Part shown: positions 21,768-27,617 of the stretch, in pieces
Layout of the letters: the number at the start of each line of letters is the position of its first letter
Position numbering within the stretch: position 1 is the stretch's first letter
Origin: a virus
Strand: one strand, 5' to 3'
Length of the DNA stretch: 64,000 nucleotides
IMG/VR virus record: IMGVR_UViG_3300041955_001937
Location: 8,727 to 72,726 of that record
Program-made: the position numbers and the translations under genes
The notes under the pieces: model-generated
Told to the model about the DNA's origin: nothing
The model's input: the letters and a program-made list of their open reading frames with translations, nothing else
Databases searched by the model: none

Positions 21768-22073
21768 CTAACCGCGCGCGTGGTCCCTGTTCTCGCGCGT
21801 GGTCCCTCTCCAGCATTCCCAAACGCCTTCGATCTCGACCTTGAATCCGAGATCGCCCGGGTAAGCGTGTATTCGTCGGATCAACCCGATGACGGCGACG
21901 ATATCCAGGACGATCTGGTCATCCATTCCCCACAAGTCGGTTGGATCCCAGCCGCCGTTCTCCTCGGCGTTATGCCAAGCCAGGAGAAAATTCGCCACCC
22001 TGCGCGACTGCCCCGTGCCCGTCCGGGCGATGTCCAGTAGTCGGGCAATGGCCGCTCTTTCCTTATCCGTCAT
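21768..22073 (-). CDS. Conserved mobile-element protein (TGQSRRVANFLLAW family)
   Basis: LLDIARTGTGQSRRVANFLLAWHNAEENGGWDPTDLW; AAGGA RBS. Confidence 0.7.
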   Translation of the reverse strand: MTDKERAAIARLLDIARTGTGQSRRVANFLLAWHNAEENGGWDPTDLWGMDDQIVLDIVAVIGLIRRIHAYPGDLGFKVEIEGVWECWRGTTRENRDHARG

Positions 22074-22089
22074 CGTCGTTTGGTTCCTT

Positions 22090-22488
22090 TCAGCCGGCAT
22101 GGACGATTTCCTCCGGGGTTGCATCGATCAGGCCGAGACTCCCTGAGCGTCGCAGGAACGGCAGCGGGCGCGCGTTGTGCAGCACCCAGCCGAATTGACC
22201 GGGTTCGCGCCAAACGGAATCGATGGCTGGATCGTAATCGTCTGGACTCAGGCAGTCTGTCAGCGTGACCATGCCGATAATCCCGCCGGATTCCAGGTAT
22301 CGGGGTAAATCGATTGCAAAGCGTTCACGGATCACGCGGCGGAGATATTCGATTCGCGGTTCCCAGCGGCTGGACGCCTGTATTAGCACGGGGCCACGGT
22401 AGAGCGTTCGTCGCGATCTGTTTTCGATGGGCTTGAATCCGTTGACGATGAGCCACGCCCACGGCTGTCTCACTACGAGCACTTTCAT
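22090..22488 (-). CDS. ASCH domain protein
   Basis: VRQPWAWLIVNGFKPIENR...YRGPVLIQA...GGIIGMVTLTDC. Confidence 0.85.
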   Translation of the reverse strand: MKVLVVRQPWAWLIVNGFKPIENRSRRTLYRGPVLIQASSRWEPRIEYLRRVIRERFAIDLPRYLESGGIIGMVTLTDCLSPDDYDPAIDSVWREPGQFGWVLHNARPLPFLRRSGSLGLIDATPEEIVHAG

Positions 22489-23333
22489 GCGGCCACCAGG
22501 TGTGAAATCTGCGAACGGTTCCAGGTCCATGGCGCTTTGCGGATCGGCTGGGGAATCTTGCCCCGTTTCACCCACGTGTAGACGGTGGAACTATTGATCC
22601 TGAGGGCGTGCGCAAGTTCCTGGGCGTCAATCGTCGGGCTATCGTCGGACGACTGGGGGACGGTCGCGGGCGCGCTCACGGGGCGCGTGTGGGCGATTGG
22701 CGAACTTGGTTCGATCACTGTCGAACCAGGCGCGATCAGTTCCATTTCGAGCGCGTTCAGGACCGCGCGGATGTTGCCCTCATGCTGATCGAGCAGCGCG
22801 GCGAAGTCGGGCGCGGGCGCGGTCGATTCCAGAGCCCAAACACGGGCGAGGAAATCCCGAGACGCTTCAATCTCCCGGCGCCCGTCGAAAGGGACGACGC
22901 GGCATCGGCTGATAAAGCGCTTTTCGAGCAGCTTGGTTTCGTTCGCCGTGAATATGAAAATCGTGTTCGGCGGGCGTGTGGTCCCGTCCAACTTCGAAAG
23001 GAAAGCCAGTTGCGCGGGTTGCGTCATCCGGTCCGCTTCATCCACCAAAACGATATGCCATCCGCCGTTCATGGGCGTGTACCAGCAGGCGTGACACGTC
23101 CGCTCCACGCCTTCCAGATCGCACTGGCGACTGGCGATGTGGTGGAGTTCCGCCTTCATGGCCACGGCGAGGGCGAGCCCCATCGAAGTTTTCCCGGTAC
23201 CGGAATCGCCGGTGAACAGCCAGGCGGATTCGTAGGGTTCGGCGATCAGCGAGGCGAGCAGCTTCTTTGCCACGGTGAGGCCGGCGAACGCGTCAAGCGT
23301 CGCAGGCTGATATTTATCGGTGAGGGCGATCAT
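22485..23333 (-). CDS. Clamp-loader/RarA-like AAA+ ATPase with C-terminal HTH
   Basis: DKYQPATL, GDSGTGKT, VLVDEAD, ISRC, GNIRAVLN; IDAQELAHALRINSSTVYTW. Confidence 0.8.
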   Translation of the reverse strand: MIALTDKYQPATLDAFAGLTVAKKLLASLIAEPYESAWLFTGDSGTGKTSMGLALAVAMKAELHHIASRQCDLEGVERTCHACWYTPMNGGWHIVLVDEADRMTQPAQLAFLSKLDGTTRPPNTIFIFTANETKLLEKRFISRCRVVPFDGRREIEASRDFLARVWALESTAPAPDFAALLDQHEGNIRAVLNALEMELIAPGSTVIEPSSPIAHTRPVSAPATVPQSSDDSPTIDAQELAHALRINSSTVYTWVKRGKIPQPIRKAPWTWNRSQISHLVAA

Positions 23334-23554
23334 GCCGCCGCCTTCGGAGCGCGATACATCGCGCGGATCATTTTCCCTGGCGTCGGAAGGTATCCCAGTC
23401 TCGCCATGTGAGCGACGAAGAAAAGGCCATCCAGGCGGATGTACGCATCAGGCGACGTTCCGCCGAGCGCGATAGGAAGGGTCATGCCGCAGACTTCGTT
23501 TCGCGGACAATTGCGCACGGATGCGACCTTGTTCTGGAGAATAGTAGGTACCAA
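23330..23554 (-). CDS. Hypothetical protein
   Basis: Follows repeat promoter/RBS copy 1; ATGA overlap with the AAA gene. Confidence 0.55.
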   Translation of the reverse strand: MVPTILQNKVASVRNCPRNEVCGMTLPIALGGTSPDAYIRLDGLFFVAHMARLGYLPTPGKMIRAMYRAPKAAA

Positions 23555-23629
23555 TTGCTTTCCTCTTTCCGCTGCTGTAACAGCGTCTCTGCTTAAACGA
23601 GATTAGCAAACCACGGGCGGTTTGTCAAT
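23555..23629 (-). promoter_or_regulatory. Repeated promoter/operator/leader hairpin/RBS, copy 1
   Basis: TTGACA-17-TAATCT; CAAACCGC-CC-GTGGTTTG; CGCTG-TTACAG-CAGCG; GAGGAAAG. Confidence 0.85.
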
Positions 23630-23825
23630 CTTTCTTCTGCTTCTTTCGGCAGTGCATCCAGGCGGCGCGCGCGCTCGGCTGTTCCCGGCCGCATCTCGGG
23701 CAATCCGTGGGAATCGCGGGGCGTCCGCCCACCGCAACTTTGCCTGCCGCCGCCAACGCGTTCTTGGCGTTCGCGGCGTTGCGCTGGTGTTCGGTCAGTG
23801 AAGTATCCGTCTTCCTGGGCTTCAT
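23625..23825 (-). CDS. Small basic protein with GGRP motif and CxxC..HC Zn-finger-like end
   Basis: AAAGKVAVGGRPAIPTDCPRCG...WMHCRKK; GAGGAG upstream. Confidence 0.6.
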   Translation of the reverse strand: MKPRKTDTSLTEHQRNAANAKNALAAAGKVAVGGRPAIPTDCPRCGREQPSARAAWMHCRKKQKKD

Positions 23826-23831
23826 TGGGGT

Positions 23832-26207: not shown

Positions 26208-26491
26208 GCTGTCGGCTCCGCCTTGCTGCATTCCCAATCGGGCCGCGCGTGTGCCATCGTGTCGCACCACGGGTAATCGGAAGGGTAGACCGCGCCTTCG
26301 AGATCCCGGCCGCGTTCGTCCCTCATCTGGAGCGAAACGCTGCATATCGTTTCCTCCTCCAGCCCGATCTTTCCCAGGTTCAACTCGATCAGCGCGCGTG
26401 CGCGTGCGGCGAACTGCTCATCGGTCACCGCTTCTTCGTGCTCCACGTTGAAACACAGGAGCACGGGAACCATGGCGCGCGTGGCGGTCAT
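26204..26491 (-). CDS. Hypothetical protein
   Basis: ATGA overlap. Confidence 0.6.
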   Translation of the reverse strand: MTATRAMVPVLLCFNVEHEEAVTDEQFAARARALIELNLGKIGLEEETICSVSLQMRDERGRDLEGAVYPSDYPWCDTMAHARPDWECSKAEPTA

Positions 26492-26811
26492 GCCGCCACC
26501 AGTTTGCCGGTGCAATCGTCGCCGTAGTGCCCGCACACGTCGCAGTGGCCGGCGCCTACGGGCGCGTGGGGGAATTCCGGTATCGCCAGGTCTGCAAACC
26601 AGGCCTTGAGCGCGTGCGCATCCTCGCCGGTGAGTTCAATTAGCGCTGACGAATTATCAGCCGCGCGTTTGCTCCATAACCCGATGCTCAGACGCAAAGC
26701 CGGCTCGTTCTGCCCCAGCGTCGGAATTTGATGGGACGTGACGCGCGCAAGGCGAGCGTAGCCGTTCCTGCCTTTGAATTCAGAGTGGCCCGATAACGTC
26801 AGATTTTTCAT
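26488..26811 (-). CDS. Hypothetical protein with C-terminal CDVCGH
   Basis: GAGGAAAGCAAA RBS. Confidence 0.65.
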   Translation of the reverse strand: MKNLTLSGHSEFKGRNGYARLARVTSHQIPTLGQNEPALRLSIGLWSKRAADNSSALIELTGEDAHALKAWFADLAIPEFPHAPVGAGHCDVCGHYGDDCTGKLVAA

Positions 26812-27086
26812 TTTGCTTTCCTCGTTTTCGATTTGAATGCCCTGCGCAGCGACTTGGCTTTCGCCGCATCGTCGCGCTGTTCTCCCTCGTTGTCCTCTTC
26901 GGGCGCGTCGCACTCGCGGGCTATTTCATCTGCCAGCAAGAGGGCGTCGACGTCTGTATCCGCCAGATCGCGGGTTCCGTCAATTTCGAAGCCGATCGCC
27001 TCTTCGAGTGCCGAAAGTGCGTCCCAGAATTCGCCCTGGGCAAGTCTGGCTTCTTCGTACCTTTCGAGCAGCTGGGCGCGATTCAT
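26808..27086 (-). CDS. Small acidic protein with basic tail
   Basis: GGAGG RBS; D/E-rich. Confidence 0.65.
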   Translation of the reverse strand: MNRAQLLERYEEARLAQGEFWDALSALEEAIGFEIDGTRDLADTDVDALLLADEIARECDAPEEDNEGEQRDDAAKAKSLRRAFKSKTRKAK

Positions 27087-27343
27087 GCCGTGCCTCCGTT
27101 CGGGTAGCTCGCGCTGAACGACTCGATGGCGCGGTCAAGATTGGATTTTGCGGCGAGCAGGTAAGCTCCCAGCGAATGCGCCTTGTCCGTTTCGATGTTG
27201 GCGGACTTGAGGGAGCCTTGCGCCGATCGAATCAGCGCGTGAATCTGGAGACTTTCGGCGACGGTGATAACCGCATGGGGCAGGTCCGGCTGAGGGACTG
27301 CGAATTTAGCGAATGACACGAATAGCGCGCGTAGTTCTCGCAT
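27083..27343 (-). CDS. Hypothetical protein
   Basis: AAGGA RBS, ATGA overlap. Confidence 0.55.
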   Translation of the reverse strand: MRELRALFVSFAKFAVPQPDLPHAVITVAESLQIHALIRSAQGSLKSANIETDKAHSLGAYLLAAKSNLDRAIESFSASYPNGGTA

Positions 27344-27539
27344 TTGGTTTTCCTTGAATGCGGGCGCGCGTCTTGCTCTGGGTCACGCTGAAGGGGGCGA
27401 AACCCTCAGTGCGCATTTTCTCGACTACATCAATCGTGGGTATGAACGAGTATCGGTCGCTCACCTTGTCATAAGGCTGAGTGGCGAAAATGCTCGGGGC
27501 GATGCTTCTCAATTGCTCGTTTGAAAGTGCGGTTCTCAT
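27306..27539 (-). pseudogene. Truncated DUF932/DUF945-family gene (N-terminal ~60 aa only)
   Basis: LSNEQLRSIAPSIFA...SDRYSFIPTIDVVEKMRTEGFAP; family proteins are normally much longer. Confidence 0.65.
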
Positions 27540-27540
27540 T

Positions 27541-27617
27541 TTGCTTTCCTCTTTCGCTGCTGTAACAGCGTTTCTGCTTACAGACTGAGATTAGCTAATC
27601 GCCGGTGGTTTGTCAAT
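27541..27617 (-). promoter_or_regulatory. Repeated promoter/operator/leader/RBS, copy 4
   Basis: TTGACA-17-TAATCT; degenerate operator; CGCTGTTACAGCAGCG; GAGGAAAG. Confidence 0.85.

Follow-up and report, generated by a model that had tools for sequence, protein, structure and literature searches.

The subject of this analysis is a window of 64,000 nucleotides (nt), comprising bases 8727-72726 of the 72.7-kb IMG/VR provirus record IMGVR_UViG_3300041955_001937. It carries an HK97-like, temperate phage whose host, assigned from the source names of homologues, is probably a Bryobacteraceae-like member of the Acidobacteriota. Within it lies a minus-strand block of approximately 5.9 kb, running from 27624 to 21768 and hereafter called the island, in which 15 open reading frames (ORFs) fall into four predicted transcription units, each headed by a copy of the same repeat (Table 1). 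Before the island, on the plus strand, there are two sigma-like genes and genes for NusG-like, ParB/methyltransferase-like and Mom-like proteins. After it come a 194-aa tyrosine recombinase, a portal-gene fragment, an HNH endonuclease, the small and large terminase subunits (TerS and TerL), portal, protease and capsid. The island is thus placed between regulatory and DNA-modification genes on one side and the recombinase-HNH-TerS-TerL block on the other.

The four repeats are direct copies on the minus strand, located where an earlier note, made from the sequence alone, had placed them, and repeat detection groups them into one family with four 38-nt copies, one with four 31-nt copies and one with three 78-nt copies. 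Read 5' to 3', each unit consists of an A-rich tract, TTGACA, the spacer AACCGCCCGTGGTTTGC (17 nt), TAATYT, a variable stretch of 5-15 nt, the stem-loop CGCTGTTACAGCAGCG, the ribosome-binding site (RBS) AAAGAGGAAAGCAA with its strong Shine-Dalgarno sequence, and an ATG or TTG start codon, with RBS and start in identical register in all four aligned copies. The -10 hexamer is TAATCT in copies 1, 3 and 4 and TAATTT in copy 2; an extended TGn -10 is present in copies 1-3 (TTTGCTAATCT), and the A-rich tract is clear in copies 1, 3 and 4, less so in copy 2, from which the TAAGCAGAAA stretch of the other copies is also missing. The spacer is filled by the dyad CAAACCRC-N2-GYGGTTTG, which pairs at 7/8 positions in copies 1-3 and at 5/8 in the degenerate copy 4. 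Boxes, dyad and RBS are all as the earlier note had described them, but it missed a second palindrome (CGCTGTTACAGCAGCG, with the pattern CGCTG-N6-CAGCG) in the 5' untranslated region (UTR), which is invariant in all four copies and forms a small hairpin in three of the four minimum-energy structures, with unremarkable z-scores. The stop codon of the ORF upstream of unit 3 falls within the -35 hexamer of that unit, and the 3' end of g11 traverses the promoter of unit 1.

These elements occur far more often than chance would allow. The 27-nt core TTGACAAACCNCCNGNGNTTNGCTAAT is found four times in the 64 kb with up to three mismatches permitted (shuffle expectation 0.00), the spacer dyad four times at up to two mismatches (0.26 expected) and the UTR palindrome four times (0.10 expected), while TTGACA-N16-18-TAnnnT is found five times (0.23 expected), four of these being the units. 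The only other TTGACA-17-TAnnnT site, at 56619-56647 on the plus strand, reads TACAAT and lies in a low-GC stretch beyond the tail genes, where it may mark a second moron or an early promoter near the other prophage end. Scans of IMG/VR, GTDB genomes and JGI metagenomes for exact patterns (the promoter core, and the half containing stem-loop and RBS) returned nothing outside the record, and a blastn comparison of 21500-28500 with 50,697 phage records was likewise negative; at the level of exact motifs, the scans show that the unit is private to this lineage rather than that variants are absent. A reading as extracytoplasmic function-type promoters was discarded, the AAC/CGT spacing being unsuitable and copy 4 lacking CGT. 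The repeats are real and, judged by their motifs, almost certainly expression cassettes; they look like a promoter, an operator and an RBS combined in one unit.

Table 1 Features of the island and the adjacent packaging block, in window positions (SD, Shine-Dalgarno sequence)
Feature	Position	Strand	Description
Unit 4 (outermost)	27541..27624	-	-35 TTGACA 27616-27611; -10 TAATCT 27593-27588; dyad 27612-27595 (5/8 pairs); stem-loop CGCTGTTACAGCAGCG 27570-27555; SD ~27553-27544; ATG 27539
Unit 3	25890..25976	-	Promoter core 25968-25940; dyad 25964-25947; stem-loop 25922-25907; SD; ATG 25889
Unit 2	24043..24111	-	Promoter core 24110-24082 (-10 TAATTT); dyad 24106-24089; stem-loop core 24073-24059; SD; TTG 24041 or ATG 24035
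Unit 1	23555..23636	-	Promoter core 23628-23600; dyad 23624-23607; stem-loop 23585-23570; SD; TTG 23554
g1	27306..27539	-	77-aa N-terminal fragment of DUF932-family protein
g2-g6	27083-27343, 26808-27086, 26488-26811, 26204-26536, 25965-26345	-	Five small ORFs without family
g7	25710..25889	-	59-aa acidic ORF (isoelectric point, pI, 4.2), first after unit 3; no family
g8	24610..25716	-	WGR-domain ATP-dependent DNA ligase, 368 aa
g9	24122..24835	-	ORF without family
g10	24041 or 24035 to 23832	-	Small ORF after unit 2; no family
g11	23835-23593	-	Small ORF after unit 2; no family
g12	23330..23554	-	74-aa basic ORF, first after unit 1; no family
g13	22485..23333	-	RFC/DnaX-like AAA+ ATPase: Walker A, DEAD and SRC motifs; C-terminal HTH_17
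g14	22090..22488	-	ASCH-domain protein, 132 aa from internal ATG
g15	21768..22124	-	DUF7673, Pfam E 3e-23; last gene of island
Noncoding region upstream of recombinase	27700..27827	+	Two AGTTGCACA-like motifs ~70 nt apart
Short tyrosine recombinase	27828..28412	+	194 aa, catalytic domain only; Pfam Phage_integrase E 3.7e-23
HNH endonuclease	28551-28871	+	Gene synteny
Intergenic region, candidate cos	28872-29179		309 nt, between HNH and TerS
TerS	29180-29659	+	
TerL	29718-31367		Follows TerS

The window proteins were compared with the family libraries of Pfam, PHROGs, NCBIfam and PADLOC. Where the earlier note had counted about 14 mostly small genes we count 15 ORFs, and its labels (a truncated DUF932 protein, a WGR-ligase, an AAA+ protein and an ASCH protein) all receive family support, DUF7673 being the fifth family found. 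The remaining 10 of the 15 ORFs match no family in these libraries and are treated as putative genes; plots of GC content at third codon positions, used as a check on them, were indecisive in places. The DUF932 label of g1 comes from a Pfam match (PF06067) at E 0.0042 and 17.3 bits, below the cut-off of 23 and covering profile positions 3-41 of 227, together with phrog_12094 (E 3.3e-14) and an alignment of 54 aa, 41% identical, with the DUF932 protein of comparison locus L113, which is full-length; no remnant of the rest of the gene was found downstream of g1 in any frame. The ligase g8 matches DNA_ligase_A_M in Pfam (E 2.1e-12) and has 41 homologues, some with a WGR domain (PF05406). Its own N-terminal WGR domain is confirmed only through WGR_XIII of PADLOC (E 1.8e-11, residues 15-94) and the WGR-annotated homologues. 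Similarly, g14 belongs to phrog_3193 (E 6.6e-35), and its ASCH label comes only from a PDB sequence match to the ASC-1 ASCH domain (E 2.8e-9). The conserved core gene of the island is g13, whose HTH_17 tail is the only DNA-binding domain that Pfam detects in the island and which is a candidate autoregulator. Among the family-less ORFs, the one at 26808-27086 is acidic (pI 4.5); the starts of g2-g6, which were searched in the family libraries and the fetched loci only, are uncertain at their overlaps, and since the listed start of g9 overlaps g8 by 225 nt, its real start is probably internal.

The block had been described as an opposite-strand cassette interrupting the plus-strand late region, and comparison with other phages bears out the insertion. 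None of the 15 island ORFs occurs in any of 79 IMG/VR loci anchored on TerL relatives of at most 66% identity. Homologues of the recombinase, at 73-80% identity, are present in three IMG/VR phages (L166, L167 and L168), two of which, L166 and L167, have the order sigma, methylase, lysozyme, NusG-like, two ORFs, recombinase, one ORF, HNH, TerS, TerL, with every gene on the same strand and with neither the island nor the dyad. The recombinase is therefore probably, as far as gene order tells, a backbone gene kept beside HNH and terminase and not the partner of the repeats. As an insertion the island is specific to this lineage, and at its core is a module of the plasmid or integrative and conjugative element type. 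The statement that it interrupts the late region has to be softened: a stretch of approximately 130 nt before the recombinase gene is shared by four phages with differing terminases and contains paired AGTTGCACA/AGTTAGACA motifs (L167 7880-8000; L168 7880-8000), so the recombinase-HNH-terminase block probably has its own control region. This region, directly preceded in the window by a GCAGGGG-AAA-CCCCTGC hairpin, may act as a late promoter read by the phage sigma factors, or as the site on which the recombinase itself works.

The second line of evidence is the company that the core AAA+ gene keeps in other elements. Its family is large (1164 matches at E <=1e-3), with source names that include Bryobacteraceae, Solibacter and Terriglobales. 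We assembled 81 loci, 80 from GTDB genomes (mostly metagenome-assembled genomes of Acidobacteriota; L085-L164, each with the AAA+ gene at ~10001) and one further locus, L005. ORFs in comparison loci are our own crude calls, and neighbours were counted by tblastn, with Pfam applied to a subset of loci. Before the AAA+ gene, and on its strand, stands ArdC in 28/81 loci and DUF932 in 3/81; within 600 nt after it there is a resolvase in 45/81 and a short tyrosine recombinase in 5/81. The earlier note had linked DUF932 to plasmid leading regions and phage takeover modules, and the core AAA+ gene does accompany ArdC or DUF932 in other mobile elements. A module of ArdC or DUF932, an RFC-like mini-AAA+ protein of ~211 aa and a resolvase or short tyrosine recombinase is thus seen in mostly Acidobacteriota elements, often near primase or DUF3987 genes; we found no description of it in the literature. 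As a by-product with wider reach than the island itself, its presence in dozens of Acidobacteriota elements may matter more, and is testable.

All three kinds of module gene are present in the window, but they are dispersed over 6 kb, the recombinase lies upstream and divergent, and the DUF932 gene is a stump. The layout has parallels in two Bryobacteraceae loci from lambda-type prophages, L085 and L086, in which the AAA+ cassette (DUF932, ORF, AAA+ in L085; DUF6573, ORF, AAA+ in L086) diverges from a lambda-type TerS/TerL/portal block. The geometry of lying beside the packaging genes and reading away from them is therefore met again in another packaging lineage, one unrelated to the first. 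A lone TTGACA-17-TAAACT promoter stands in a 174-nt gap of L085, 60 nt before DUF932. No similarity was found between g12 and the small ORF between DUF932 and AAA+ in L085, so a simple model of a split ancestral operon is not demonstrable.

Several AAA+ relatives carry repeated expression signals of their own. In L005, one promoter is followed by a hairpin and RBS element repeated four times, before AAA+, a small ORF, ArdC and another ORF; the start of this contig, ~200 nt before the cassette, is uninformative as a genome end, the record being a 42% complete fragment. L097 has three copies of TTGACAAACCCAACAAAGC (TTGACAAACC...) with a UTR hairpin, L101 has four units upstream of ArdC-AAA+-resolvase, L134 and L138 have units of 61-86 nt, and L085 has a hairpin directly before the RBS of its second gene. 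In L160, whose AAA+ protein also has a helix-turn-helix, a TTGACA promoter carries a perfect 8-bp inverted repeat across the -10. A CGGACAT core is common to the units of L101 (5592-8117), L134 (2703-8938) and L138 (3622-6126), within CCGGACATCTTCGCGGC and CAGCGGACATAT...CCCGGACAAT, and may be a common regulator site or a promoter not of the sigma-70 type. Upstream of ArdC-AAA+ in L128 there are six tandem 20-nt repeats and four CTCTCGTGTAGTCA repeats (6752-6877, 7316-7571), which look like iterons of a replication origin.

The third line of evidence is position. The packaging block is of the HK97 type, with HNH directly before TerS and TerL and with an HK97-type portal, protease and capsid, and an HNH gene beside cos and terminase is an arrangement described for HK97-type cos phages. 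From this synteny the intergenic region at 28872-29179 is the likely, predicted cos region. The distance of about 1.5 kb between island and probable cos given in the earlier note is therefore plausible, the interval from unit 4 to this region being 1.3-1.6 kb on a cos position predicted from synteny. By analogy with lambda, the cos-proximal right end would be the first to enter the cell.

From the repeats, their anatomy, the insertion status of the island and the module association of its core gene, we infer promoter activity, a repressor, timing, function and shuffling as parts of one reading, which we prefer tentatively and with slightly less than even confidence. It holds that this is a co-regulated island of the establishment or anti-defence type, assembled from portable promoter-operator-RBS cassettes that double as homology patches for gene exchange. 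The inference drawn in the earlier note, an early-entering anti-defence module that one repressor silences in the lysogen, is partly supported. Host RNA polymerase would fire all four promoters without a regulator, on entry or after induction, and a single dimeric DNA-binding protein on the dyad between -35 and -10 would shut all four units. A dimer bound to the 18-bp dyad (-33 to -16) would keep polymerase off, which would let one regulator switch four units, and copy 4, with its degenerate half-site, would be the leakiest. Candidates for the regulator are the HTH_17 tail of g13 and the ribbon-helix-helix (11873-12067), XRE (12119-12514) and HTH_17 (11626-11919, 14752-15276) proteins of the immunity region near the integrase; as the record contains no further copy of the dyad, it favours no one of them. 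That the core AAA+ gene elsewhere forms part of ArdC/DUF932 modules, in integrated elements as well as in prophages, suggests a role in establishment or counter-defence such as that of plasmid leading regions.

The near-identical cassettes would also allow gene sets to be added, lost or swapped, as in the promoter-early stem-loop (PeSL) elements of T4-type phages. Swapping by recombination between repeats had been proposed in the earlier note; it has gained an exact precedent in PeSLs and, for the present phage, stays a proposal by analogy. No unit-to-unit joints were seen in the contigs of three DNA runs, in which there are loose contig ends at 23780 and 26004, near units. One joint from 21442 to 28371 that would delete the whole island was discounted, its 20-nt side occurring in a single contig.

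If the units are co-repressed early promoters, the island would illustrate, in compact and natural form, the way in which a prophage acquires accessory genes and brings them under joint control. Its small proteins would then be reasonable counter-defence or establishment candidates. Although this is doubtful, Acidobacteriota temperate cos phages may have adopted a plasmid-type leading-region module beside cos, reading inward, which in this phage was enlarged by PeSL-like cassettes; the result would be a phage version of the anti-defence islands of plasmid leading regions, with a co-regulated establishment burst and inbuilt gene swapping.

According to the original account (Arbiol et al. 2010, PMC2839356), PeSLs comprise an A/T-rich tract, sigma-70 -35 and -10 boxes and a Shine-Dalgarno (SD) sequence with start codon at the 3' end; the stem-loop lies mostly between the two boxes, and the elements stand upstream of ORFans in plastic regions. 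They are described as promoter and attenuator in one, with recombination between copies that shuffles ORFans and yields minicircles (PMC2839356; Comeau et al. 2014, PMC4122927). The window units share the repeated intergenic cassette with its A/T-rich tract, sigma-70-like boxes inside the repeat, a sequence capable of forming a stem-loop between them, and an SD and start at the 3' end. They likewise head small genes lacking assigned function in a plastic region, and the gain, loss and swapping of modules demonstrated for PeSLs is what we propose here. However, PeSLs belong to lytic T4-type myoviruses and number ~50 per genome, whereas the present units are four in one island of a temperate HK97-like cos phage; they have an operator-like 8-2-8 dyad instead of a G/C-rich terminator stem, carry an extra invariant UTR stem-loop and are known from sequence alone.

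For the regulatory logic, the closest model is the CUP (conserved upstream)/ArdK regulon in the leading region that pKM101, an IncN plasmid, carries (Delver and Belogurov 1997, as cited in PMC6289460). In the description given there, several copies of one upstream regulatory sequence control genes in the part thought to act first in a new host, and one repressor, ArdK, presides over an establishment and anti-restriction gene set; the likeness to the island would be one of logic. The differences are that pKM101 is a plasmid, that the sequences are unrelated, and that no ArdK-, ArdA- or ArdB-like family was found among the island proteins in Pfam, PHROGs or NCBIfam. No ardA, ardB or ardC was found under the repeated element, and ArdC is met only in the modules of relatives. 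Anti-defence islands in plasmid leading regions, with repeated Frpo/ssi promoters, are a further model (Samuel et al. 2024, PMC11541004). Here too the genes are small and mostly uncharacterised, one promoter type is multiplied with all copies pointing in the (here predicted) direction of DNA entry, and the core AAA+ gene has an ArdC-type neighbourhood in relatives. Those promoters are long single-strand hairpins for transferred single-stranded DNA, in contrast to duplex units of ~80 bp in a double-stranded DNA phage, and none of the anti-defence genes listed there is in the window island.

Among temperate cos phages, mycobacteriophage L5 has an early leftward promoter at the right genome end and repeated sites for one repressor, and its early genes read inward from the cos-proximal right end, as those of the island would. 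Its sites are asymmetric 13-mers spread genome-wide that act mostly as stoppers, whereas here whole promoter cassettes are confined to a single island. By analogy, then, the anatomy is nearly that of PeSLs and the regulatory logic resembles that of the CUP regulon and the Frpo islands. Repeated portable promoter cassettes have already been documented in lytic T4-type phages and plasmid leading regions; we found no case in the literature for temperate HK97-like or Acidobacteriota phages.

A number of observations weigh against a co-repressed establishment island. The -10 hexamer agrees with TATAAT at only 3/6 positions, and because of this a consensus promoter scanner misses the units. The spacer dyad shows no compensatory change and copy 4 is broken on one side only, which leaves both an operator and a hairpin unproven; as neither the window nor the complete 72.7-kb record has any further copy of the dyad, it flags no autoregulated repressor gene. 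DUF932 is cut off ~230 nt into the gene and not at a unit, so that event, at least, was not unit-to-unit recombination. No known defence or anti-defence family was found among the island genes in Pfam, PHROGs, NCBIfam or PADLOC; ArdC is not in the island and DUF932 is the 77-aa stump. Dispersed 13-mers with at least three occurrences are present in 6/81 AAA+ loci and 5/79 TerL loci, and by this crude measure there is no enrichment, which makes repeated units among the relatives anecdotal. For lambda, in vitro work has challenged the very rule by which the end packaged last leaves the capsid first (PMC10287942). A weaker objection is that contigs from a wetland metatranscriptome match the island with 100% identity at 22078-22296, 23907-24053 and 26184-26369; a fourth, also at 100%, lies at 28831-29078. 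These contigs are small, shallow and few in number, may stem from carried-over DNA, and leave the uncovered parts of the island uninformative, but if they are lysogen transcripts, silencing is not tight.

The same anatomy could be accounted for by PeSL-type cassettes that have no repressor, which we regard as unlikely. Both palindromes would then be stem-loops that attenuate or insulate against transcription from the upstream unit or the opposite strand; each gene set would have its own unregulated early transcription, and the repeats would serve mainly for modular shuffling. The PeSL anatomy given in PMC2839356 agrees with the window units point by point, and promoterless hairpin and RBS repeats exist within the operon of L005 and, in L085, in the gap that separates DUF932 from the following ORF. 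On the plus strand both palindromes precede T-rich runs and both are listed by a terminator scan, but that scan finds 11 sites against 9.9 in shuffles, which is no excess. The stems are short and weak (fold z-scores of -0.3 to -1.6), the pairing lost in copy 4 is not compensated, and the middle of the spacer, where the 8-2-8 dyad lies, is where a dimeric repressor classically binds. That three DNA runs show no unit-to-unit joints, as far as contigs tell, is a further point against this explanation.

A repressor-controlled early island is also to be set against a cluster for lysogenic conversion or superinfection defence, expressed from the prophage and serving the lysogen rather than the infecting phage. 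Prophage-expressed genes of this kind are known from lambda bor and from the cos-adjacent hotspots of P2-like phages, and the position and reverse orientation of the island are typical of morons beside cos. Relatives without the island fit such a cluster, as do the three RNA-library contigs within it, which are however few and shallow and possibly derived from DNA. In one preprint (10.1101/2025.06.20.660599), DUF932 mutations in an integrated plasmid are linked to surviving phage attack. Against this, no PADLOC defence system was matched, the association of AAA+ with ArdC (28/81 loci) favours counter-defence or establishment over defence, and a dyad lying across the promoter argues for switchable rather than constitutive expression. 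We consider this explanation improbable, to much the same degree as the previous one.

Early timing itself would be lost if the units were promoters for either of the phage's own sigma-70-family factors (14125-14685, 16539-17192), making the island middle or late instead of immediate-early. Two sigma-like proteins and a NusG-like factor are indeed encoded and the -10 is non-canonical, but a perfect TTGACA separated by 17 bp from a T-A-n-n-n-T hexamer that has TGn is the housekeeping pattern, and the L085 and L160 cassettes in other elements likewise begin with TTGACA promoters; we hold this to be very unlikely.

Least credible of all is the idea that the repeats are sites for the adjacent tyrosine recombinase, with integron- or shufflon-like excision and capture of gene sets: a catalytic-domain-only recombinase does lie divergent and 200 nt from unit 4, in 50/81 loci elsewhere a small recombinase comes after the AAA+ gene, and the dyad can be read as 6-6-6 (CAAACC-N6-GGTTTG), but the homologues in L166, L167 and L168 (73-80% identity) stand before HNH and terminase without such repeats, the 6-6-6 motif occurs in 0/172 other fetched loci, its central 6 nt vary between copies, the conserved parts of the units coincide with expression signals and stop at the start codon, the match to integron-integrase models is confined to the last 60 residues (positions 242-304 of a 315-position profile) and scores 51 bits where the cut-off is 265, and the paired motifs upstream of the recombinase gene are better site candidates. 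The recombinase has sub-threshold NCBIfam matches to XerA/XerC and to invertases of the FimB/E type.

The remaining observations concern the flanks. The portal-gene fragment between recombinase and HNH (28413-28550) matches Phage_portal at positions 199-240 of 321 (E 1.9e-7, below the cut-off) and is the scar of an earlier rearrangement beside cos. The two sigma-70-family proteins are accompanied by a NusG-like factor at 17490-18047, and as the same sigma and NusG-like pair is found in L167, these phages appear to run their own transcription programme. Just before the island, 19289-21248 encodes a Tlde1-domain protein, a ParB-N/methyltransferase-like protein (MTase_II of PADLOC, E 2.5e-26) and a Mom-like DNA-modification protein, and the phage may modify its own DNA. 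In the left part of the record (548-8729 and 8726-11625), genes for DUF3991/Toprim, a TraG/VirD4 coupling protein and a KAP NTPase are followed by two tandem tyrosine integrases; the record probably joins two mobile elements.

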